This document shows, one piece after another, positions 16,831 through 55,994 of a DNA stretch of 64,000 nt. Each line of letters opens with the position of its first letter. Position 1 is the first letter of the stretch. A program made the position numbers and the translations under genes. Below the pieces are notes generated by a model. It made no database searches. It saw nothing but the letters and a program-made list of their open reading frames with translations, and was not told where the DNA came from. Source of the DNA: Squalus acanthias (Eukaryota). The DNA is taken from assembly GCA_030390025.1 (NCBI GenBank), contig CM059431.1, positions 148,182,001 to 148,246,000 on the forward strand, read 5' to 3'.

Positions 16831-17062
16831 CTACTCACTGGATACTCAAACTGAGCCCGAATGGAATGAAATCTATACGTAGCAATGTATAAAATTCTGT
16901 TCAGAGAAGATGAAAACTCAGATACTTCAGATTGTGTTGCAGTGAATTGTTGTGGTGACAATACATAGATACATAGATACATAGAAGATAGGAGCAGGAG
17001 TAGGCCATCCGGCCCTTCGAGCCTGCTCCGCCATTTAATGAGATCATGGCTGATCCTCCAAT

Positions 17063-19930
17063 TCAGTATCCCGTCCCCGCCTTCTCTCCGTAACCCTTAA
17101 CCCCTTTTGCCTGTAGAAATACATCTAATTCCCTCTTAAATATATTTAATGAGCTGGCGTACACTGCCCTCTGTGGCAATGAGTTCCACAGGTTCACCAC
17201 CCTCTGAGTGAAGAAATTCCCCCTCATTTCTGTCCTAAATGGTTTAGCCCTTATCCTTAAATTATGTCCTCTAGTTCTGTTCTCACCCGCCAAGGGAAAC
17301 ATTCCTTCTGCATCTAGTCTGTCTAGACCTGTCAGAATTTTATACACTTCTATGAGGTCCCCTCTCAATCTTCTAAACTCCAGTGTGTACATCCCTAAAC
17401 TACATAGTCTCTCCTCATAGGTCAATCCCGCCATTCCTGGTATCAGCCTGGTGAATCTCCGCTGCACCCCCTCCATGGCAAGAACATCTTTCCTCAGATG
17501 AGGCGACCAAAACTGTACACAGTACTCGAGGTGTGGTCTCACCAGTGCCCTGTACAGCTGCAGCAAGGTATCCCTGTTCCTGTATTCCAACCCTTTTGCT
17601 ATGAAGGCCAGCATACCGTTTGCCTTCTTGATCGCCTGTTGCACCTGCATGCTCGCCTTCAGTGACTGGTGTACAAGAACACCCAGGTCTCTCTGTACTT
17701 CCCCCTCTCCCAATTTATTGCCATTTAAATAATAATTTGCCCTCCCGTTCCTGCACCCAAGGTGGATAACTTCGCACTTGTCCACATTATAGTGCATCTG
17801 CCATTTATCCGCCCAATCACCCAGTCTGTCCAAATCGCTCTGGAGCTTCCTGGTCTCCTCCTTTGAGCCCACCCCCCCTCCTAGTTTAGTGTCGTCTGCA
17901 AATTTGGAATTGCTGCATCCGACTCCCTGATCCAGGTCATTAATGTAAATTGTGAACAGCTGGGGACCCAGGACAGATCCCTGTGGTACCCCACTTGTTA
18001 CTGCCTGCCATTCAGAAAATGAGCCGTTTATTCCAACTCTCTGTTTTCTATCTGACAGCCAGTTCTCTATCCACGTCAATACTTTCCCCTTTATCCCATG
18101 AGCTTCAATTTTCCCTGCTAATCTTTTATGTGGGACCTTATCGAAGGCCTTTTGGAAGTCCAGGTACACCACATCTACTGGCTCTCCCCCATCTATTTTA
18201 CCAGTTACTCCCTCAAAAAATTCCAATAGATTAGTCAAGCACGATTTACCCTTTGTAAATCCATGTTGACTCTGTCCTATCCTGTCCCCATTTGCTAAGT
18301 GCTCCGCTATTTCATCCTTAATGATGGACTCCAGCATTTTGCCCACAACTGATGTAAGGCTTACAGGTCTGTAATTACCTGCTTTTTCCCTACCCCCCTT
18401 TTTGAATAGTGGGGTAACGTTAGCTACCCTCCAATCCATGGGCACTGTTCCCGAGTCTAATGAATTCTGAAAAATCATACTTAGTGCATCCGCTATCTCT
18501 AGGGCCACCTCCTTCAGCACCCTAGGATGCATGTTATCAGGCCCTGGGGATTTGTCCGCCTTCAATCCCTTTAGCTTCCTTAACACCATATCCTTAGAGA
18601 TATTGACTTGCGTCAGTTCCTCCTTTGCAAATGTCCCTATTTTTCCCGATATCCCAGGGAGGTTTTTTGTGTCTTCCTTCGTAAAGACTGACCCAAAGTA
18701 TGCATTTAGTTGGTCTGCCATTTCCTTATTTCCCGTTATATATTCCCCCGTATCTGACTGCAATGGGCCAACTTTGGTTTTCACCAGTCTTTTCCTCTTG
18801 ATATACTTATAAAAGCTTTTGGAGTTAGTTTTTATATTTTCCGCCAGCTTGCTTTCGTAAGCTATTTTGCCCCTCTTGATTAAGCCCTTTGTCCTCCTTT
18901 GCTCTATCTTAAACTGTTCCCAATCTTCCGCTCTGGCGCTTTTTTTGGCTATTTTATACGCCCTATCTTTGGATTTTATGCTGTCTCTAATTTCCCCTGT
19001 TATCCACGGTTGAGTCACCTTTTTAGATTTCCTTTTATGCCAGATTGGTATAAACAATTTTTGCAATTTTGTCTTTCTATCTTTAAATGCTTGCCATTGT
19101 TTATCTACCTCCAGTCCTCCCAGGAACGTTGTCCAATCAGACCTACTCAGTTCCCGTCTAATGGCATCATAATTCCCCTTGTTTAAATTCAGGACCTTAG
19201 TATCTGAGTCAATTTCTTCGCTCTCCATTTCGAGTGAGAAATCGATCATGTTATGATCGCTCTGACCCAAGGGTCCCCGTACAACAAGATTACTAATTAG
19301 TCCCTTCTCATTGCACAGTACCCAGTCCAATATAGCCTGTTCCCGAGTTGGTTCCTCGACATATTGATCCAGATAACCATCCCTTAAACACTCAAGGAAT
19401 TCCTCCTCCTCATTATTTTTACTGATTAGGCTATTCCAATCTATATGTAAGTTAAAGTCACCTATGATGACAGCTGTGCTCTTATTGCACGCTTCTCTAA
19501 TTTCCCTCGTGATGCCCTCCCCAACCTCTATTTTACTATTTGGAGGCCTATATACCACTCCTATTAATGTTTTTCGCCCCTCGCTATTTCTTAGCTCCAC
19601 CCATATAGATTCTGTATTAACTGAGTTAATATCCTTCCTTTCAATTGCATTTATCCCTTCTTTTACCAGCAATGCTACCCCTCCTCCCTTTCTTTTTTGT
19701 CGATCCTTCCTAAATACTGAATACCCCTGTATGTTAAGCTCCCAGCCCTGCTCACCCTGCAACCATGTTTCCGTAATCCCAATTAGATCATAATTATTAA
19801 CCTCTATTTCCACAGCTAATTCATCTACCTTGTTCCTGATGCTTCTCGCATTAAGGTATAAAACCCTCAGGCTTTTTTTATGCTCACATTTTTTATGAAT
19901 TAGTTTGGCCCTTTGTTTTTTGTTCCTCAC
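17063..19930 (-). CDS. CR1 ORF2: APE endonuclease + reverse transcriptase (true start uncertain; frame stays open upstream into the end of ORF1)
   Basis: 955-aa uninterrupted frame with YLNARS, ITETW, GDFN, SDH, NYRPVSLTS, QHGF, DFQKAFD, GVPQGSVLGP and FADD motifs. The track start at 19930 is GTG. Confidence 0.96.
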   Translation of the reverse strand: MRNKKQRAKLIHKKCEHKKSLRVLYLNARSIRNKVDELAVEIEVNNYDLIGITETWLQGEQGWELNIQGYSVFRKDRQKRKGGGVALLVKEGINAIERKDINSVNTESIWVELRNSEGRKTLIGVVYRPPNSKIEVGEGITREIREACNKSTAVIIGDFNLHIDWNSLISKNNEEEEFLECLRDGYLDQYVEEPTREQAILDWVLCNEKGLISNLVVRGPLGQSDHNMIDFSLEMESEEIDSDTKVLNLNKGNYDAIRRELSRSDWTTFLGGLEVDKQWQAFKDRKTKLQKLFIPIWHKRKSKKVTQPWITGEIRDSIKSKDRAYKIAKKSARAEDWEQFKIEQRRTKGLIKRGKIAYESKLAENIKTNSKSFYKYIKRKRLVKTKVGPLQSDTGEYITGNKEMADQLNAYFGSVFTKEDTKNLPGISGKIGTFAKEELTQVNISKDMVLRKLKGLKADKSPGPDNMHPRVLKEVALEIADALSMIFQNSLDSGTVPMDWRVANVTPLFKKGGREKAGNYRPVSLTSVVGKMLESIIKDEIAEHLANGDRIGQSQHGFTKGKSCLTNLLEFFEGVTGKIDGGEPVDVVYLDFQKAFDKVPHKRLAGKIEAHGIKGKVLTWIENWLSDRKQRVGINGSFSEWQAVTSGVPQGSVLGPQLFTIYINDLDQGVGCSNSKFADDTKLGGGVGSKEETRKLQSDLDRLGDWADKWQMHYNVDKCEVIHLGCRNGRANYYLNGNKLGEGEVQRDLGVLVHQSLKASMQVQQAIKKANGMLAFIAKGLEYRNRDTLLQLYRALVRPHLEYCVQFWSPHLRKDVLAMEGVQRRFTRLIPGMAGLTYEERLCSLGMYTLEFRRLRGDLIEVYKILTGLDRLDAEGMFPLAGENRTRGHNLRIRAKPFRTEMRGNFFTQRVVNLWNSLPQRAVYASSLNIFKRELDVFLQAKGVKGYGEKAGTGY

Positions 19931-20004
19931 CCTTTTACCATTTATTTCTGTCTGCCTTTCACTTTCCTCTATTTCACTACATAGGTTTCTAGCCCCCTGC
20001 CATA

Positions 20005-20952
20005 CTAGTTTAAATGCTCCCGAACTGCTTTATCAAAAATTACCCCGAGAACATCAGTTCCATCTTTGCACAGGTGTAGACCGTCCCTTTTGTATAGGTC
20101 ACACCTACCACAAAACTGGTTCCAATGACTCAAAAATTTAAAACCCTCCCTCTTACACCACTGCTCAAGCCACGTATTTAGCCTAACTATCCTGTTCTCT
20201 GTACTCTTACTAGCACGTGGCACTGGTAGTAATCCAGAGATTACTACCTTCGAGGTCCTACTTTTTAGCTTGGCTCCTAACTCCCTAAATTCTACTTGTA
20301 GGACCTCTTCCCTTTTTTTAGCTACGTCGTTGGTACCAACATGTATCACGACAACTGGCTGTTCCCCCTCCCCCTCCAGAATGTTCTGCACCCGCGCCGA
20401 GACATCCTTGACCCTTGCACCAGGGAGGCAACATACCATCCTGGAGTCTCGGTCGCGACCACAGAAACCCCTATCTATTCCCCTTACAATCGAATCCCCT
20501 ATTACTATAGCCCTGCCACTCTTTTTCCCTCCCTTCTTTGCAACAGAGCCAGTCATGGTGCCATGAGCCTGGCTGCTGGTGCCTTCCCCCGATGAGTCAT
20601 CCCCCCCGACAACAGCACCTAAGGCGGTGAACCTGTTGCTAAGGGAGACAACCCCAGGGGATTTCTGCACTACCTTCCTGCCCTTGCTCTGCCTTTTGGT
20701 CACCCATGTACTATCTACGCTGGCCTTAACCTGCGGTGTGACCAACTCACTAAATGTGTTATCCACAACCCTCTCAGAATCGTGGATGCTCCAAAGTGAG
20801 TCCATCCGCAGCTCAAGGGCCGTCATGCGGTCCCACATGAGCTGCAGCTGGACACACTTCCCGCACACATGGTTGTCAGGGACACAGGAAGCGTCCCTGA
20901 TTTCCCACATGTTACAGGAGGAGCATGACACAGGTCCGAGCTCTACTGCCAT
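20005..20952 (-). CDS. CR1 ORF1: N-terminal zinc finger/leucine zipper + SGNH/GDSL esterase-like domain
   Basis: GCCATGG start; CxxC...CxxC; GDSIVRG, PGA, HVGTND and DGLH blocks; 315 aa intact. Confidence 0.93.
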   Translation of the reverse strand: MAVELGPVSCSSCNMWEIRDASCVPDNHVCGKCVQLQLMWDRMTALELRMDSLWSIHDSERVVDNTFSELVTPQVKASVDSTWVTKRQSKGRKVVQKSPGVVSLSNRFTALGAVVGGDDSSGEGTSSQAHGTMTGSVAKKGGKKSGRAIVIGDSIVRGIDRGFCGRDRDSRMVCCLPGARVKDVSARVQNILEGEGEQPVVVIHVGTNDVAKKREEVLQVEFRELGAKLKSRTSKVVISGLLPVPRASKSTENRIVRLNTWLEQWCKREGFKFLSHWNQFCGRCDLYKRDGLHLCKDGTDVLGVIFDKAVREHLN

Positions 20953-21410
20953 GACTTAACCCTTATATTACTTTTTAATTTTCTAGTTTTAGTTTATTTA
21001 TTGACTTTTGTTTTCCCGAAGCTTACTTAGACCAATGTATACTGTACTCCTCTTATTCCTTTTTAAACTAACCAAATCCCACTAGTTTTAGTTTTACTTT
21101 CTAGGAAGGTTTGAGTAAAGTACTTACCAGTTAGTCTTACCTCCCTGGTCTTTCGCTGACTTCCCGGTCTTGTGTCCCCTTGGTCCTACGCCGACTTCCC
21201 GCTCCTCCCGGTTCCTGCCCTGCTGAAAAGAAACTGAGACCAAAAAATTTGTGACCTCTGTTTTTAGACTGCTAAAAGACTAGTAGGTTAGAGGAGGAGG
21301 GCGGGTGGGGATTCCTACTCTGTAGGAACTCGGGTTTAAGCCACCACCCTCCTTAAATGCTGTTCACCTGGGTGCTTCCCACCTGGTCCGCTTCCGGTCT
21401 CGTCTCTCCG

Positions 21411-21861
21411 GACACTGGCCTCTGCAAAAAAAAAGCCCGCGAAAGTGAGTTTAAATACTCACTGTGCTGCTGCTCTCTCCGCTCCCGACACTGGCCTCTG
21501 CAAAAAAAGCCCGCGGAAGTGAGTTTAAATACTCACTGTGCTGCTGCTCTCTCCGCTCCCGACACTGGCCTCTGCAAAAAAAAAGCCCGCGAAAGTGAGT
21601 TTAAATACTCACTGTGCTGCTGCTCTCTCCGCTCCCGACACTGGCCTCTGCAAAAAAAAGCCCGCGAAAGTGAGTTTAAATACTCACTGTGCTGCTGCTC
21701 TCTCCGCTCCCGACACTGGCCTCTGCAAAAAAAAAGCCCGCGAAAGTGAGTTTAAATACTCACTGTGCTGCTGCTCTCTCCGCTCCCGACACTGGCCTCT
21801 GCAAAAAAAGCCCGCGAAAGTGAGTTTAAATACTCACTGTGCTGCTGCTCTCTCCGCTCCC
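21411..21861 (-). repeat. Six tandem 74-76-bp monomers forming the 5' end of the CR1 element
   Basis: Units start at 21411, 21487, 21561, 21637, 21712 and 21788 and differ almost only in A-run length. They lie inside the flanking direct repeat. Confidence 0.92.
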
Positions 21862-24925: not shown

Positions 24926-24980
24926 TGCTCTTGCTCCCAGCCTGATGTCTAACTTCCCTGTTTATTTATCTTCCTCACAG

Positions 24981-25882
24981 TGAACTTAGTGACGATTGTG
25001 ATCATGTCTCAGGGAAAGTGCGGTCTCTCCAAATGTGTCACTCGCTACCTGGTGGCCATGGCAGCGGCGGATCTACTGGTCATTATCATCGACCTGATAT
25101 TGAGGCAGATTCCGATTGTTTATTGGAGACAGTTTATTTTCCTGCGTTCCATCCGGGTGTGTAATATCCACGCCGTCCTGCTTTATGCAGCCACAGATTG
25201 TTCTGTCTGGTTCACCGTCACTTTCACCTTTGATCGATTTGTGGCCATTTGTCTCCAGAAGCTGAAAACTAAATATTGCACCAAGGAAACGGCGGCTGTG
25301 GTTCTGGGCACAGTGACTGTGCTGAGCTGTTTAAAGAACATCTTCTGGTATTTTCTGTTGACATATCGGTATCGGCTTCAGAACACCCCCTGGTTTTGTG
25401 AGGTAACATACACTGTTATGATTTCACGGGTCTGGGGAGCAATCGAGCTCGTTCATTATCTTCTCACCCCGGGCGTCCCATTTTTTGTGATTCTGCTGCT
25501 CAATGCTGCCACCGTCAGACACATTTTAGTGGCCAGCAGAGCCCGCAGGAGACTCCGGGGTCCCAACAGTTTGGAGAGTCCCAGAGACCCAGAGATGGAG
25601 AGCCCCAGGAATTCCATAATTTTACTGCTTGTTATCTCCGGCAATTTCATCCTGTTATGGGCAATGTTCATGGTGATTTATATATGGAACCGGTTGTGGT
25701 ATTCGGAGTATCATTCTGTATCTCTACCTCTTTATGTACAGAAAATAGCATTGATGCTGCAGCTGCTGAGTTGCTGCACAAACACTGGGATTTATGCCGT
25801 GACCCAGACTAAGTTCCGAGAGCAGTTGAAGAATGTGGGGAAATATCCCTTTAATCAGATTTTAAAATTCATTAAAGGATGA
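24981..25882 (+). CDS. Orphan class A GPCR (GPR139/GPR142-like), copy A, coding exon 2 (spliced CDS 1014 nt, 337 aa)
   Basis: Acceptor TCTTCCTCACAG|; TM1 Asn, MAAADLLV (TM2), C...FTFDRFVAIC (TM3), ECL2 WFC, TM5 P...LLN, TM7 NTGIY and helix 8 KFRE. Confidence 0.92.
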
Positions 25883-26579: not shown

Positions 26580-29500
26580 AATGACATCTCCTCAGGACTC
26601 TAGCCCCAGCATGGTGCAAGTGAAGCCCGTCCAAACGGAACAGCTCCCTCTTATCCCAGTACTGGTGACAGTGCCCCACAAATCGGAACCCATTTCTCCC
26701 ACAACAGTCTTTGAGCCACTCGTTCATTTCTCTGATCTTATTTACCCTATGCAAATTCGCTCGCGGCTCAGGTAGTAATCCAAAGATTATTACCTTTGTG
26801 GTTCTGCTTTTTAATTTAACCCCTCGCTGCTCATACTCTCTCAGCAGAAACTCTTTCTTTGTCCTACCTATATCATTGGTACCTCCGTGGACCATGACAA
26901 CTGGATCTTCCCCCTCCCTCTGCAAGTTTCTCTCCAGCCCAGAGTCCTGGCAAATCGAATAACTGAGGCTGTACAGAGGGCTTTAAACTAAATAGTGGGG
27001 GGGAGGATCCAGATGAGCGGGAAAATAAAAAAGTCTATAAAAATGAGAAAGCAATAGAGCAGGCTGGAGATGGGTGAAATAATAACTAGAGTATGACAGG
27101 AAGGGACAGAATGATTAAAAATAAGAGTGTAACAGAAAAAAAGGCCTAAACATGGAAAAATGGTAAGAAGAGAAAGTTAAAAGCTCTATATCTGAATGCA
27201 TGCAGCATTCGTAACAAGATAAATGAGTTGACGGCACAAAAAGATATAAATGGGTATGATCTGATCGCCATTACAGAGAGGTGGTTGCAAGGCGACCAGG
27301 GCTGGGAACTGAATATTCCAGGGTATATGATAATTCAGAAGGATAGAAAGAAAGGAAAGGGAGGTGGGGTGACTTTGTTGGTAAAAGATGGGATCAGTGA
27401 ATTGGTGAGAAGTGATATTGGCTCAGAAGATCAAGATGTAGAATCGGTTTGGGTGGAGATAAAAAATAATATGGGGTAAAAGTCTCTGGGGGGGCGGAGG
27501 CGCGTAGTCTACAGGCCCCCGAAGAGTAGCAATGCTGTTGGACAGAGTATAAATCAACAAATAATGGAGGCCTGTAAAAAAGTGGTACGGTAATAATCAT
27601 GGGTGATTTTAATCTCCATATTGATTGGACAAATTAAATTAGCCATGGTAGCCTGGAGGAGGAGTTCATAGAGTGCATCCGGGATGTTTTCCTAGAACAG
27701 TATGTCATGGAACCAACCAGGGAGCAGGCTATCTTGGATCTGGTACTATGTAATGAGACAGAATTTATAAATGATCTCATAGTAAAGGATCATCTAGCAA
27801 AGAGTGATCATTGCATGGTTGAATTTCAAATTCAGCTGGAGGTTGAGAAAGTTGTATCCCAAACCAGTGTCCTGATCTTAAACAAAGGCAATTAAAATAG
27901 CATGAGGGCAGAACTGGCTAAAGTGGACTGGAAAAATAAATTACAGGGTAAGAAAGTTGAAATGCAGTGGCGGACATGTAAGGTGATATTTCATAACTCT
28001 CAAGAAAAATATATTCCAGGGAGAAAGAAAGATTTTAACAGAAGGGAGCACCATCAGTGGCTAACTAAGGAAGTATAGGATGGTATCAAATTGAAAACGA
28101 AGGCATACAATGTTGCCAAGATTGGTGGGAGACCAGAGGATTGGGACATTTTTAAAAACCAGCAATGGATGACTAAAAATATAATAAAGAGAGAGAAGAT
28201 GAATTATGAGAGTAAGCTGGCAAGAAACATTAAAACAGATAGTAAGAGCTTCTACAGGTATATAAAAAGGAAGAGGGTAGCTAAAGTAAATGTTGGTCGC
28301 TTAGAGGATGAGACTGGGGAATTAATAATGGGGAACGGAAAAATGGCAAGACTTTGAACAAATATTTTGCATCTGTCTTCACTGTAGAAGACACTAACAA
28401 CATCCCAATAATGGACAAACAAGGGGCCATAGGGAGGGGGCAACTAAAGACATTCACTATCACTAAGGAAATAGTACTTGGTAAAATAATGGGACTAAAA
28501 GACGACAAGTCCCCTGGACCAGATGGCCTGCATCCCAGGGTCTTAAAAGAAGTGGCTGCAGAGATAGTGGATGCATTGGTTGCAATATACCAAAATTCCT
28601 TGGACTCTGGAGAGGTCCCAGCGGAATGGAAAACCGCTAATGTAACACACCTATTTAAGAAAGGAGGGAGACAGAAAGCAGGAAACTATAGACTAGTTAG
28701 CCTAAAATCTGTCGTTGGGAAAATGCTGGAGACCTTCATGAAGGAAGCAGTAGCCGGGCATTTAGAAAAACATACTGCAGTCAAACAGAGTCAGCATGGT
28801 TTTAGGAAAAGGGAATCAAGTTTAACAGATTTGCTGGAGTTCTTTGAGGATGTAACAAGCAGGGTGGACAAGGGTGAGCCAGTGGATGTGGTGTATTTGG
28901 ATTTCCAGAAGGCATTCGATATGTGTCACATAAAAGGTTACTGCATCAGAGAAGAGGTCACGGAGTTGGGGGTAATATATTAGCATGGATAGAGATGGGC
29001 TACCTAACAGAAAGCAGAGAGTGGGGATAAATGGGTCATTTTCTGGTTGGCAAACGGTAACTAGTGGGATGCCACAAGGATAGGTGCTGCGGCCCCAACT
29101 ATTTACAATCTACAGTAATGACTTGGATGAAGGGATCGAGTGTAATGTAGCCAAATTTGCAGATGATACCAAGATGGGCGTGAAAGCAAGTTGTGCAGAG
29201 GACTCAAAGTATCTGCAAAGGCATATAAACAGATTAGGTGAGTGGGAAAACATTTCACAGATGGAGTATAATGTGGGAAAGTGCGGGGTTATCCACATTG
29301 GCAGGAAAAATAAAAAAGCAAACTATTATTTAAATGGAGAGAGATTACAAAATGCTACAGTTCCGAAGGACTTGGGGGTCCTTGTGCATGAAACACAAAA
29401 CGTTAGTATGCAGGTTCAGCAAGGGGGTTGGTGTATAATAGCAGGGAAGTCCTGCTACAACTGTACAAGGTATTGGTGAGACCACACATTGAGAACTGCG

Positions 29501-32911: not shown

Positions 32912-33790
32912 TGGTCATACCTAGCAGAACGCAAGGTGGTTGTGGTGGTTGAATGTCAATCATCACAGCCCCAGGACTTCGCTGCAGGTTTTCCTCAGTG
33001 CAGTGTCCTGGGCCAAACCATCTTCAGCTGCTTCATCAATGACCTTTCCTCCAACATAAGGTCAGAAATGAGGATGTTCGCTGATGACTGCACAGTGTTC
33101 AGTGCCATTCACAACTCCTCAGATAATGAAGCAGTCCATGCCCGCATGCAACGGGACCTGGACGTCGTTCAGGCTTGGGCTGATAAGTGCCAGTTAACAT
33201 TTGCGCCACACAATTGCCAGGCAATGACTATCTCCATCAAGTGAGAGTCTAACCACCGCCCCTTGAAAGTGAATGGCATTACCATCGCCGAATACCCCAC
33301 CATCAACATCCTGCGCGTCACCATTTACCAGAAACGTAACTGGTGCAGCCACTTGAATACTGTGACATCATCCAGGACAAAGCAGCCCGCTTGATTGGCA
33401 CCCCACCTACCACCTTAAACATTCACTCCCTCCACTACCAGCGTAACATGGCTGCAGTGTGTACCATCTAGAAGATGCACTGCAGCAACTCGCCAAGGCT
33501 TCTTCGGCAGCGCCTCCCACCCGCAACCTCTTCCACCTAGAAGGACAAGGGCAGCAGGCGCATGGGAACACCACCACCTCCAAGTTCCCCTCCAAGTCAC
33601 ACACCATCCTGTCTTAGAATTATATCACCGGTCCTTCCTCATCACTTGGTCAAAATCGTGGAACTCCCTCCCTAACAGCACTGTGAGAGTCCCTTCACCA
33701 CACCGGACTGCAGCGACTCGCCACCACCTTCTCAAGGGCAATTAGGGATGGGCAACAAATGCTGGCCTTGCCAGCGACACCCATATTCCA
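32912..33790 (+). mobile_element. Second copy of the same truncated LINE, internally deleted
   Basis: Same 5' truncation point (GTCATACCTAGCA); GFPQCSVLG...MFADD. Mirror at 47265-48165. Confidence 0.82.
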
Positions 33791-33793
33791 TAA

Positions 33794-34776
33794 TTTACAT
33801 TAATGACCTGGATCAGGGAGTCGGATGCAGCATTTCCAAATTTGCAGACGACACTAAACTAGGAGGGGGGGTGGGCTCAGAGGAGGAGACCAGGAAGCTC
33901 CAGAGCGATTTGGACAGACTGGGTGATTGGGCGGATAAATGGCAGATGCACTATAATGTGGACAAGTGCGAAGTTATCCACCTTGGGTGCAGGAACGGGA
34001 GGGCAAATTATTATTTAAATGGCAATAAATTGGGAGAGGGGGAAGTACAGAGAGACCTGGGTGTTCTTGTACACCAGTCACTGAAGGCGAGCATGCAGGT
34101 GCAACAGGCGATCAAGAAGGCAAACGGTATGCTGGCCTTCATAGCAAAAGGGTTGGAATACAGGAACAGGGATACCTTGCTGCAGCTGTACAGGGCACTG
34201 GTGAGACCACACCTCGAGTACTGTGTACAGTTTTGGTCGCCTCATCTGAGGAAAGATGTTCTTGCCATGGAGGGGGTGCAGCGGCGATTCACCAGGCTGA
34301 TACCAGGAATGGCGGGATTGACCTATGAGGAGAGACTATGTAGTTTAGGGATGTACACACTGGAGTTTAGAAGATTGAGAGGGGACCTCATAGAAGTGTA
34401 TAAAATTCTGACAGGTCTAGACAGACTAGATGCAGAAGGAATGTTTCCCTTGGCGGGTGAGAACAGAACTAGAGGACATAATTTAAGGATAAGGGCTAAA
34501 CCATTTAGGACAGAAATGAGGGGGAATTTCTTCACTCAGAGGGTGGTGAACCTGTGGAACTCATTGCCACAGAGGGCAGTGTACGCCAGCTCATTAAATA
34601 TATTTAAGAGGGAATTAGATATATTTCTACAGGCAAAAGGGGTTAAGGGTTACGGAGAGAAGGCGGGGACGGGATACTGAATTGGAGGATCAGCCATGAT
34701 CTCATTAAATGGCGGAGCAGGCTCGAAGGGCTGGATGGCCTACTCCTGCTCCTATCTTCTATGTATGTATCTATGT
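33794..34776 (+). mobile_element. ~1-kb 5'-truncated copy of the young CR1 family
   Basis: Protein nearly identical to ORF2 of 17063-19930 (3 differences visible); ATAA/ATAA flanks; empty site at ~47272. Confidence 0.95.
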
Positions 34777-42927: not shown

Positions 42928-44390
42928 TCAAGGTTCGTTCCATCCCTGGCCATAGCCTTCATTTTGATGCTCTTCCCAAGTCCCTTCGTGTCTGGAACGG
43001 AGCTCCCGGTCCCTTCCCCTGCACTTTGTACACAGCAGGTAGAGATCTATCCCGAGCTGGCAGACCACCAAAAGATGGGAAGCCATCCTGATCCAGCAAG
43101 GCAATTCTATATTCTCGAAAATATCCCACCAGTGTGGAACTATTTTATCCAAAATCTCTGCCCCAATTTCAACTGTTTTCTGTTCCAGGGTGTAGAAATG
43201 TTTTTGTGAAATCTCGACAGCTTTAAGTAGGATGGTAAGATGTTCGGGTAGAGGGGGAATTTTATATCCAAAGTAAATCACATACTTTTGCAGGTTGGTG
43301 ATGTTTTCTGTTACAGTGAGGTGAACAGTGGAGGGTCACGAATGGGGACAATCCGTTCTTGGCCAATTAAACTTCTGCCTCTGGTTTAAAGCAGAAACTT
43401 CTGTCACTAACCGGACACCAGAAGTGTCCATGCTGGTAGTGGGACGCACCTGTGGTGACACAATATATCCCACCCCCTATATATGCTACCTGTGGGGAAA
43501 CATGGCCATGTGCCATCACCTCCATCGTACAGTTTATAGGTCGTGTGCCAGCAGCTTTAAACCCGCACTGTGGTTTAGAATAGGCGGTCAAGTGCTGGGG
43601 ACACAGTATTATGTGTGAACCCCGGCTCTGGCACCCGGAGAGGTCAATACCTGTCATGGCGTGCTCCCACTTTATGACATAAGGTGGGACCGCTTTAAAA
43701 CGGATGTGTGCACCCCCTTGAATGACTCCAATGTTCTCCACCCTGTATACCGGTACGGGTCGGGCTGTCCCACTCATGACCGGCATTCTCACTACTATCT
43801 CCATGATAGTGTGATTGGAATGCCCACAATCTATTGGGACAGGGTAGGCTTCAGAGGCTAGACGAAAGTGCCATGGGCTCAGCGAATTACTAAACGGGTG
43901 GAGGGCGGAGAGGTGCCGGTTGCTGATCCAGGAGGAGACTAAACCTTGCTTTAAATCCTCCAGGTTGCTACGGCCCTCGCCCAGCAACCATGCCCCGTAC
44001 AGCACACACACCTCATTCTGTGCAGCCTGATCCGATGCATTCCTATCCTCCCGTATGAGTGCATTTACTGTTTTGGCATGCCTTTCCAATTCTGCAATAA
44101 TTTCCTTTAAATGAACCGTCATAGCTTGGTCCTCATGTAGCACTGAGCCTACCAATGTGTTCCCATACTTCAGATCTTTCTTAACTGGGTTTTTAAACCA
44201 TTTATCTGTTTCTGTAATTCCATGTCATCCAGGCTATTTATTACAGAGGATCCTGTACTATAGGCAGTGAAAACATCATTCCAGGCACTCCTTCTTTGTC
44301 TACCCGTGCCCATAGGGTTCTCAGGGTGTATTCTTTTACAGGAACAGAGCAACGTCACCCTGTTAGGAATGGTATAGTATTATCCCTTTC
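42928..44390 (-). pseudogene. Decayed env-like fusion glycoprotein gene, cleavage site to TM/cytoplasmic tail
   Basis: Three frameshifted ORFs: RQRR|SAWNDVFTAYSTGSSVINSLD + heptad repeat; Cys-rich domain (43367-44155); HWWDIF + hydrophobic anchor (42928-43281). Lies upstream of the PPT and LTR. Confidence 0.75.
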
Positions 44391-52300: not shown

Positions 52301-52745
52301 TTTCCTGCTCATCTGGATCCTCCCCCGCCCCCCCCCCCACTTTTTAGTTTAAAGTCCTCTCTACAGCCTTAGTTATTCCATTTGCCAGGACTCTAGCCTC
52401 AGCATAATGCAAGTGAAGCCCGTCCAAACGGAATAGCTCCCTCTTATCCCAGTACTGGTGCCAGCGCCCCACAAATCGAAACCCATTTCTCCCACACCAG
52501 TCTTTGAGCCACTCGTTCATTTATCTGATCTTATTTACCCGATGCAAATTCGCTCGTGGCTCAGCTAGAAATCCAGAGATATTACCTTTGTGGTTCTGCT
52601 TTTTAATTTAACCCCTCGCTACACATACTCTCTCAGCAGAACCTCTTTCTTTGTCCTACCTATGTCATTGGTACCTCCGTGGACCATGATAACTGGATCT
52701 TCCCCCTCCTACTCCAAGTTTCTCTCCAGCCCAGAGGAGATGTCA
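49368..52745 (-). mobile_element. Decayed CR1 LINE (older family), paralogue of 26580-30070, ORF1 part not inverted
   Basis: APE/RT fragments at 49503-52214; tail at ~49368-49390; internal deletion at ~50810. Confidence 0.92.
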
Positions 52746-53457: not shown

Positions 53458-54359
53458 TCATCCTTTAATGAATTTTACAATTAGAGCAAAGGGATATTTC
53501 CCCACATTCTTCAACTGCTCTCTGAACTTAGTCTGGGTCACGGCATAAATCCCAGTGTTTGTGCAGCAACTCAGCAGCTGCGGCATCAATGCTATTTCCT
53601 GTACATAAAGAGGTAGAGATACAGAATGATACTCCGAATACCACAGCCGGTTCATTATATACATCACCATATACATTGCCCATAACAGGATGAAATTGCC
53701 GGAGATAACAAGCAGTAAAATGATGGATTTCCTGCGGCTCTCCATCTCTGGGTCTCTGGGACTCTCCCCACTGCTGGGACCCCGGAGTCTCCTGCGGGCT
53801 CTGCTGGCCACTAAAATGTGTCTGACGGTGACAGCATTGAGCAGCAGAATCACCACAAATGGGACCCCCGGGGTGAGAAGATATTGAACGAGCTCGATTG
53901 CTCCCCAGACCCGTGAAATCATAACAGTGTATGTTACCCCACAAAACCAGGGAGTATTCTGAAGCTCATACCGATCCGTCAACGAAAAATACCAGGCGAT
54001 GTTCTTTAAACAGCTCAGCACAGTCACTGTTCCCAGAACCACAGCCGCCGTTTTCTCGGTGCAATGTTTAGTTTTCAGCTTCTGGAGACAAATGGCCACA
54101 AATCGATCAAAGGTGAAAGTGACGGTGAACCAGACAGAACAGTCTGTGGCTGCATAAAGCAGGACGGCGTGGATATTACACACGCTTTTGGATCGTAGGA
54201 ATTGAAACTGTTCCCTATAAACAATCGGAATCTGCCTCAATATCAGGTCGAGGATAATGACCAGTAGATCCGCCGCTGCCATGGCCACCAGATAGCGAGT
54301 GACACATTTGGAGAGACCGCACTTTCCCCGAGACAGGATCACAATCGTCACTAAGTTCA
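53458..54359 (-). CDS. Orphan class A GPCR (GPR139/GPR142-like), copy B, coding exon 2
   Basis: Acceptor CCCTTCCTCACAG|; 902 nt; same 7TM motifs (DRF, NTGIY); open to TGA. Confidence 0.92.
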
Positions 54360-55994
54360 CTGTGAGGAAGGGAAATCAACAGGGAAATTATACATCAGGC
54401 TGCGAGCAAGAACAGCAGTTTGATGGAAATCGGGGAGAAATCTGCGAATCAATCGCGACATTAAATGATATAATCTAATTCTATTACCTGTGGAACTGAA
54501 TACAGGGTTTATTGTAAGAATAATCGGGAATAAATTGTTGAATCAATCAATGAAAAGGTGGTACATGCAACAGGAATGTAACCAATGTTTGATCAATGAG
54601 AGATGAAATGGTAGACCTGCCTTTAGCCCAGCGGTCAAAAGCTCCGCCCGAGGTACCAGGGACTAAAAGGACCAGAACCTCTCAGGAAGCCTTCGTGTCC
54701 CGGGATCAGTCAGCATTTGGAGAGCTACAATACGATTCAGTGCCCCTTGTGTTAGGGAGGAGGAAATCCGGCTTGGACTCATGCACCTGGTTGGAATATC
54801 CTTTATATTAGAGAACTGAAAATGAAAAGAACAGCAAAATACAGAAACTGCAATCTTGGCGTTCAATAATTACAGGCAATTGTATTTAAAATGTACGGCT
54901 GTAATATGCGAATGCTAAGATAATTAATAAAAGTGCACTGCAGTTATAAAGATAACCGGGCTGCAAGAAATCTTTTGAAGATTTAGTTTTCTACATTTAT
55001 GCTGAAATACACAATTTCTAGCTCATTGAAAGGAAGATTTTCCAAATAACATAAATAGTGGGAACTGAATTAAAAAAGATAGTTATTATGGACCAAGTAA
55101 TATCCGACTAAATGCATTTATTAGCATCATAATCAGGCGAATTATCCAACAGGCAAAATGCCGCCGAATGTATTTGTAAAGTATCTGAACACAAATGGAA
55201 TAGATTTATCCTTGTACTTTTTCACCTGTTGGTTTCCAACTTGTGCAGAGAATATTAGTCGAGAAAATATGAAAGGATTTTCTTACCCTCAGTACTTCAG
55301 TTACAATCAGCTGGGATTGATTATCCTGCAGTACAGCAGAAGGCAATAGAGAATCACTCTGGGTCTCACTGAGAGATCCACTGAACTGTGACAGACGGGC
55401 ATGGGATCCAATTGTAAATTCAAAACAAAGATTGGAAATAAACGCGTTGAAATATGTCTGAGTGAACGTTTTTGAGAATGTAAATTATCCTTGTAATCCT
55501 TTCTACCCATCAGAAGCAGTGCCACGAATGCAGAGCTGGAGATGGTGGGAAAGGAGACATTGACTGGAACTGAATGATTCGCGGATATTTAAGACATTTA
55601 AAGATGTGGGTGTGATCTGCCAGGATTTGTTCCTGTGACTCTGTGTCAGTAACCACGCCGAGCATTCAGTGAAAACAAAAGCAAATTACTGCGAATGTTG
55701 GAAATCTGAAATAAGCACAGAAAAAGTTTTCAATACTCAGCAGGTCAGGCAGCTTCTGTGGAGAGAGGGAGAGTTAACGTTTCAGGTCGATGATCTTTCG
55801 TCATTTGGTGAAAAGTCTCCTAAACCAAGACAACATTCATCGGATCTGTTACAAATGTTCAGTGCAGAGAACAGAATGAAATTCGTTAAATAAAGTGTGT
55901 CGTCTAATATAGTTTCTTGAGTTGAATATAGAACAATTGAATATTGGTAATACTGTAACACATTCAGAATCAATAGCCGAGAGCAGCGCGGATT

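Follow-up and report, generated by a model that had tools for sequence, protein, structure and literature searches.

The CR1 element and its ORF1-ORF2 junction

The window analysed here, a stretch of 64,000 nucleotides from Squalus acanthias, contained a full-length CR1 element on the minus strand. Canonical vertebrate CR1 elements are described as having an esterase ORF1, an ORF2 with APE and RT domains and a short-repeat tail (PMC13343379, PMC3905857), and all three were present in this copy. The C-terminal domain of ORF1 was an SGNH/GDSL esterase (Pfam PF13472), and a Cys motif and a coiled-coil-like stretch were recognised by eye at its N-terminus. The ORF2 frame, 988 codons from stop to stop, matched PF03372/PF14529 (APE) and PF00078 (RT), and the 3′ tail consisted of short, tandem (TCTATGTA)-type repeats and not of poly(A). 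Named ORF1 homologs came from sharks, rays and alligator, and the ORF1 end and the junction matched, by eye, published elasmobranch CR1 consensus sequence. Since all 150 scored matches to the ORF1 end were 99-100% identical, the CR1 family of the window is young. The features of the element, and of two further CR1 junctions in the window, were as follows.

16963..21861, minus strand: full-length CR1 LINE copy, both ORFs open
21867-21862 and 16962-16957: target-site duplication of 3-6 bp, on either side of the CR1 copy
21405..21861, minus strand: 5′ UTR array of six tandem monomers, ~75 nt each
20005..20952, minus strand: ORF1, 315 aa, ATG at 20952, ending His-Leu-Asn-stop
20008..20014, minus strand: slippery heptamer U_UUA_AAC, formed by the last two ORF1 codons and the third base of the preceding codon
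20005..20007, minus strand: ORF1 stop UAG, directly 3′ of the heptamer
19993..19997, minus strand: G-run starting 10 nt after the heptamer, a candidate stimulator
19871..20004, minus strand: linker rich in Lys, Arg and Glu, with −1 as its sole open frame and no in-frame ATG
17063..20029, minus strand: ORF2 frame (−1), APE endonuclease from 19870, then RT, stop at 17065-17063
26982..27005, plus strand: second, older CR1 junction, with heptamer, UAA and G-run at equal spacing
52325..52353, minus strand: third, decayed CR1 junction, with heptamer, UAA and an expanded G-run

ORF1 ended in CAT TTA AAC TAG, as the initial annotation had read it, with the heptamer at 20014-20008 in the X_XXY_YYZ phase of ORF1. 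The same annotation had described a −1 frame running on into ORF2, a late first ATG and a GTG start, and each of these was found in place. The frame was open from 20029 to the stop at 17065-17063, its first ATG (19249-19247) lay at the SDHN motif, close to where the endonuclease domain ends, and the GTG was in the −1 frame 28 codons past the heptamer. An out-of-frame ATG was located 1 nt past the ORF1 stop, with only 4 codons open. Two older CR1 copies had been said to keep the heptamer and the stop, and they carried both (26982-26991, plus strand; 52353-52344, minus strand). The heptamer alone was frequent, with 25 occurrences in the window. The heptamer followed by UAR, 7 nt and GGGG occurred exactly three times, at the three CR1 junctions.

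Some further observations concern copies and surroundings of the element. The 3′ end of the young element recurred almost unchanged in a 5′-truncated copy (33676-34590, plus strand), and sequence near-identical to positions 19700-21000 (0.79-0.96 of sampled words) was present in runs labelled as six organisms. Upstream of the second junction, the ORF1 part at 26700-26944 was inverted relative to other copies of its family; the inversion was also found in three loci (L020-L022) that are probably segmental duplicates. Elsewhere in the window, a 285-codon frame without a Pfam match (43367-44224, minus strand) was by eye like a retroviral envelope-type fragment. Two similar intronless frames of rhodopsin-family GPCRs were also present (24953-25882 and 53458-54375, both plus strand), the first of which matched 7tm_1.

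No ATG was seen by eye in the 5′ UTR upstream of ORF1. The six-monomer array was similar to a monomer-type LINE promoter, and each monomer held a 6-bp hairpin around a TATA-like loop containing the heptamer's seven letters. A strong splice donor was located at 21128/21127 and an acceptor at 21220. The 92-nt stretch between acceptor and donor (21128-21219, minus strand) was matched exactly by one putative RNA contig, and another putative RNA contig ended exactly at the donor. These ends suggest that the CR1 5′ UTR is spliced to outside (host) sequence.

Conservation of the heptamer, the stop and the G-run

ORF1 ends were located in 162 sequences (loci from the element's own genome, amniote-like loci from metagenomes, and the window) using an esterase HMM built without its last five columns. 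An end was parsed in 148 of them, and in 126 it consisted of the heptamer followed by UAA or UAG. Sequences without an ORF1 end (16 of the 162) were mostly truncated loci. The 22 parsed ends without the heptamer and UAR comprised four point variants at the right place, two frameshifted rows, 11 copies altered by a premature stop or indel but still showing the heptamer just downstream, and five rows, all of one copy type, disrupted by an inversion. Synonymous breakage of the heptamer, one of the refuting conditions set in the initial annotation, was absent in every family. The exact heptamer was carried by 102 of the 107 distinct intact-ended copies, those with a stop at the expected distance, and the exceptions were single decayed copies.

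Codon choice was compared among 15 representatives, nine from the own genome and six bird-like, the latter assigned by eye against the duck protein P0123. They ranged from 18 to 85% identity in ORF1 and from 6 to 89% at fourfold sites; they were picked by us and are non-independent (three were 84-85% alike), and one (L013) is a damaged copy. The final ORF1 Leu was TTA in 15/15 (background 23/226) and the final Asn was AAC in 15/15 (background 41/84). The codon preceding them was always NNT, across seven different amino acids. Among 16 near-invariant ORF1 residues with a choice of codon, only this Leu and this Asn used a single codon, and the other 14 varied. When only the nine own-genome representatives were considered, a single codon was likewise used in 3 of 46 other conserved columns, and the codon contrast therefore rests on the deeper comparison. 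The ORF1 stop was UAA or UAG in all 15 representatives and UGA in none. Thus, the heptamer lay in the X_XXY_YYZ register of the upstream frame and was conserved beyond coding need, as it is at canonical −1 frameshift sites. AAT is expected to slip as well as AAC, so the fixation of AAC indicates that some further constraint acts.

A G-rich run had been remarked on in passing in the initial annotation. The run was present, and it proved to be more than that remark implied, namely a conserved element at a fixed position. In an ungapped profile, counted from the first base of the stop as 0, G was found at +10, +11, +12 and +13 in 15/15 representatives, at +14 in 14/15 and at +17 and +18 in 14/15, with A at +15 in 12/15. 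Four Gs at the exact spacing were present in 103 of the 107 distinct copies. The junction Phe, Lys and Gly were each encoded by a single codon (TTT, AAA and GGG, 9/9), whereas the near-invariant endonuclease residues that served as the ORF2 control all used at least two codons (25/25). In ORF2, +10 and +13 fall on the third bases of codons. Because the Gly there was GGG in 9/9 while the conserved endonuclease residues varied their codons, the constraint on the G-run acts on nucleotides. A second G-run, kept by most other families, was lost in the window family, which was still recently active.

Published consensuses were searched for the heptamer followed by UAR in the first 400 letters of each sequence in the PMC13343379 supplement; the query was the motif itself, so exceptions could not appear among the results. 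There were 20 matches, 17 of them at ORF1 ends by eye, in CR1s from alligator, crocodile, chimaera, coelacanth, bowfin, bullfrog and elasmobranchs. Four Gs at the exact spacing were found in 7 of these 17 junctions (two alligator, crocodile, chimaera, stingray, sawfish and catshark). The remaining ten, which lie in ragged consensus ends, lacked exact-spaced Gs. The heptamer, the stop and the G-run at a fixed distance are kept from sharks to birds and crocodiles.

No strong stem-loop had been noted 3′ of the junction, and folding agreed with this (window z = +0.04 over 60 nt and +0.26 over 100 nt). No conserved downstream stem-loop was found among 16 folded sequences, and z dropped under −2 for one family at 60 nt and for L081 at 100 nt, but for no other. 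The folding applied is pseudoknot-blind, and the purine-rich downstream sequence leaves few pairing partners. The stable stem-loop that canonical signals carry 5-9 nt downstream was thus not seen, and a motif at a fixed spacing of ~10 nt, as in the PRRSV type, was. Two other forms of stimulator were considered and rejected. A G-quadruplex was predicted in only 4/16 sequences at 60 nt, and not in the window family. A long-range duplex partner for the G-run was not found either, as the best sites differed among the 15 sequences; one within the ORF1 codons for Cys-Leu-Pro-Gly came up among the top four partners in 7/15, weakly.

The ORF2 frame and the ends of related ORF1 proteins

From the junction to the first ATG or the endonuclease, the −1 frame held no stop in 401 codons and the other two frames held 21 and 48, in a count that covers 13 representatives chosen among copies with a readable −1 frame. 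The linker had eight different lengths, between 33 and 65 codons, with the phase kept in all. The −1 frame opened just 1-5 codons before the heptamer in 11/14 representatives, and an ATG upstream of the heptamer in this frame was absent in 14/14. Counting all copies, the frame was open to the endonuclease in 78 of 105, shifted by indels in 17, interrupted by stops in 2 and unparsed in 8. ORF2 therefore has the arrangement of a canonical frameshift product: it lies in −1, is open from the heptamer and lacks a shared start codon of its own.

The absence of an ORF2 AUG, which the initial annotation had stressed and whose breach it had set as another refuting condition, stood for the window family, in which none of the 28 copies with an open −1 frame (31 distinct copies examined) had an in-frame ATG before the endonuclease. 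It did not stand as a general rule. In-frame ATGs before the endonuclease were lacking in five of 14 representatives, the window's included, and the other nine, from sister families, had linker ATGs scattered at non-homologous places.

The ends of ORF1 were also compared among more distant relatives. Out of 117 homologs, those of CR1 type with a normal-length C-terminus ended in LN without exception (40/40), and none of the L2-type proteins did (0/33). A wider protein set comprised 138 new 50%-cluster representatives, 90 of which had the catalytic motif no more than 75 residues from the end. Asn was the last residue in 59 of the 90, and 55 of these 59 ended in LN (43), GN (9) or KN (3). Each residue before LN, GN or KN permits the needed third base. 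The residue ahead of GN was Gln or Ser, that ahead of KN was Ser or Gly, and no LN followed a residue unable to end in T. The GN and KN proteins and one LN protein formed one supported clade (FastTree). The 31 proteins not ending in Asn came from an L2-like group, from one further subclade and from scattered rows. One CR1 ORF1 of shark or ray type (P0009) bears a bacterial name and is probably a contamination. The proteins with GN or KN endings were the following.

P0167, P0172, P0176, P0178, P0186, P0189, P0223, P0224, P0260, P0192, P0254, P0230: ORF1s ending Gln/Ser-Gly-Asn or Ser/Gly-Lys-Asn

These endings, known at the protein level only, fit swaps among U_UUA_AAC, G_GGA_AAC and A_AAA_AAC. 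All three belong to the four heptamers that PMC5009743 counts among the most shifty. The apparent swaps argue for slipperiness over a fixed binding site. DNA of the GN and KN relatives was not found in viral contigs or plasmids, and prokaryote genomes gave weak matches in bacterial records only. Teleost L2 junction DNA was not found in the first 400 letters per consensus of the PMC13343379 supplement. A naturally fused, functional ORF1-ORF2 homolog was sought without success, as there were ten long matches and the three inspected look like gene-model chimeras. P0035 was rejected as a functional fusion; it is a single ray copy whose ORF1 passes into the frame of ORF2 and stops afterwards.

The metagenome scan also recovered a distinct clade of LINEs with an esterase ORF1, supported at 100/100 in an endonuclease tree. 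From 59 of its loci, 33 ORF1 ends were parsed, and 24 of these, in four families (many loci, L095-L156), were UGA followed by C, mostly as CUA or CCA, and ORF2 was in frame 0 where intact. UGA-CUA was also found in two distant loci (L091:2733-2738 and L137:1326-1331). This is the Sindbis-type readthrough context (PMC13517186). The teleost L2 protein P0110 reads in frame through the usual ORF1 end via Trp-Leu, and many UGA-C loci also have a linker ATG. We regard the UGA-C junctions as candidates for stop-codon readthrough, which is a lead and not a result. A second recoding-type junction at the same place would fit selection for the fusion.

Expression of ORF2 and comparison with known systems

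On the comparative evidence from sequence, we consider it likely that CR1 ORF2 is made by programmed −1 ribosomal frameshifting at U_UUA_AAC, yielding a 1296-aa esterase-endonuclease-RT fusion. A gag-pol-like fusion of this kind had been inferred in the initial annotation, and the codon fixation of the heptamer, the phase and the open −1 linker support it. Most ribosomes would terminate at the UAG and release abundant 315-aa ORF1p. A minority would pause while UUA occupies the P site and AAC the A site, and their Leu and Asn tRNAs would slip one base back in tandem. Decoding would then resume on the −1 codon 20008-20006 and proceed across the linker. The fusion (315 + 981 = 1296 aa) would be the minority form, in the manner of retroviral Gag and Gag-Pol. 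If frameshifting is accepted, we would put at slightly less than an even chance the further suggestion that the pause comes from the adjacent stop together with a putative factor on the G-run at the mRNA entry channel, and not from a pseudoknot. A host G-tract protein or ORF1p itself may be guessed as the binder.

A wider proposal is more speculative, and we hold it to be doubtful. It states that esterase-ORF1 LINEs as a group recode into a Gag-Pol-like ORF1-ORF2 fusion: vertebrate CR1 and its distant relatives would shift to −1 on slippery heptamers that can replace one another, and readthrough of UGA-C would serve in other clades. In this proposal the stimulator in vertebrate CR1s is the G-run at 10 nt and not an RNA fold, the run is bound by ORF1p or a host protein, and the signal is older than the split between sharks and bony vertebrates.

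The alternative that survives best is termination-reinitiation in the style of L1 and SART1, with a restart just past the ORF1 UAR, at an AUG or at any codon, and with the heptamer and the G-run setting the termination context or holding the 40S. We judge it unlikely. It is the accepted model for L1 and SART1, whose RNAs are bicistronic and whose ORF2 depends on the translation of ORF1 (PMC2881922, PMC5972666). The missing AUG proves little here, because L1 ORF2 is itself thought to initiate independently of AUG (PMC5009743). Reinitiation right after the stop would also predict an open linker, and three of five bird-like loci (L080, L081 and L086) have an in-frame ATG 2 nt past the stop. In these bird-like families it is plausible that frameshifting and reinitiation operate side by side. 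An in-frame AUG beside or overlapping the ORF1 stop, as in SART1, was absent from the window family and from all shark representatives. A near-cognate start shared by the families was not found either: the +2 codon was ATG, TCG, TGG, AGT or TGT depending on the family, the first endonuclease Leu was encoded by five different codons, and no shared near-cognate start was found at the endonuclease. Reinitiation also leaves unexplained the exact X_XXY_YYZ pattern at synonymous sites in the seven bases 5′ of the stop, and the apparent swaps to GN and KN endings.

It is less probable still that the conserved stretch serves as an element of the DNA or RNA without a role in the change of frame, such as a TATA-like promoter, a weak poly(A) signal, or a packaging or ORF1p-binding site. 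TTTAAA is a minor variant of the poly(A) hexamer, which counts in favour of such an element. So does the recurrence of the heptamer's seven letters elsewhere: all six monomers of the 5′ UTR array contain them, as do the 5′ UTRs of two dogfish CR1 consensuses in the PMC13343379 supplement. Against it, an RNA initiated at this stretch would lack an in-frame AUG up to the end of the endonuclease in the same five of 14 representatives, a binding site is not expected to switch among LN, GN and KN endings, and such an element would not hold ORF2 in the −1 phase over eight linker lengths.

In two studies, putative RNA runs, whose status as RNA is a guess, gave contigs that cover the element and run across its junction. 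The least credible reading, for which we see hardly any room, is that ORF2 comes from spliced, edited or polymerase-slipped RNA: the 5′ UTR has its strong donor and its acceptor, and two putative RNA contig pieces end exactly at that donor, but no joint, indel or changed letter was present at the junction in seven distinct putative RNA runs (contigs drop rare forms), no splice joint into ORF2 was seen in the putative RNA contigs, the UAA of most shark families leaves no AG at the stop, there is no polypyrimidine tract, and T3A3 is short for polymerase slippage.

We found no literature on a CR1 frameshift in a search that had the founding CR1 papers and the Repbase notes outside its scope. A turtle CR1 paper reportedly describes overlapping ORFs and may already raise frameshifting, and the bare idea may thus already be in print. 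New beyond the initial annotation are the fixed 10-nt G-run, the LN, GN and KN endings and the UGA-C clade. CR1 frameshifting is unmentioned in the available portions of PMC13343379 (text and supplement), PMC4120745, PMC3905857, PMC11835228, PMC4255032, PMC6609765 and PMC5408684, and CR1 is not mentioned in those of PMC5009743. The translation of ORF2 is not a subject of PMC13343379 or PMC3905857.

In most vertebrates the dominant retrotransposons belong to the CR1 group (PMC13343379), and translation of a LINE ORF2 has been settled for only a few models, as reinitiation. If CR1 frameshifting is real, the fusion would tie the polymerase to a membrane-binding esterase, set the ratio of ORF1 to ORF2 products and build in cis preference. 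CR1 ORF2 would then be annotated with a wrong start, and engineered CR1 assays would need an intact junction. The whole signal is only 25 nt long. Should the G-run stimulate shifting without any structure, a cellular genome would hold a rare counterpart of protein-stimulated viral frameshifting.

Among retroelements, the closest parallels lie in other groups. ORF2 of Dictyostelium TRE5-A and TRE3-A is said in a review to require a −1 frameshift (PMC5911963), which is not stated in the available part of PMC5006619. These are APE-type non-LTR elements like CR1, but they belong to another clade and lack an esterase ORF1. In Penelope-like elements, ORF1 is drawn as separated by a frameshift and a pseudoknot (PMC8557442). 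In these elements a frameshift links an upstream ORF to RT, as is proposed for CR1, but they are GIY-YIG elements with a pseudoknot. The two ORFs are 63 nt apart in L1 and overlap as UAAUG in SART1, and the sources consulted for them describe no slippery heptamer for either.

The CR1 junction is like ORF1a/1b of coronaviruses and arteriviruses and like retroviral gag-pol in its heptamer and phase, with a structural ORF upstream and the polymerase in −1. PRRSV is among the viruses that use U_UUA_AAC (PMC13185607). It differs from the viral signals in belonging to a host-genome LINE, in the stop directly 3′ of the heptamer and in the lack of a detected stem-loop 5-9 nt downstream. In an umbravirus, a stop 3 nt past the shift site stimulates shifting (PMC5009743). 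The −2/−1 frameshift in PRRSV nsp2 depends on a C-rich motif that lies 10 nt past the shift site and is recognised by PCBP and nsp1beta (PMC13185607). CR1 has a different heptamer and a G-run in place of the C-rich motif. Nevertheless, the CR1 G-run and the nsp2 motif are both short and unstructured, and both lie exactly 10 nt past the shift site.
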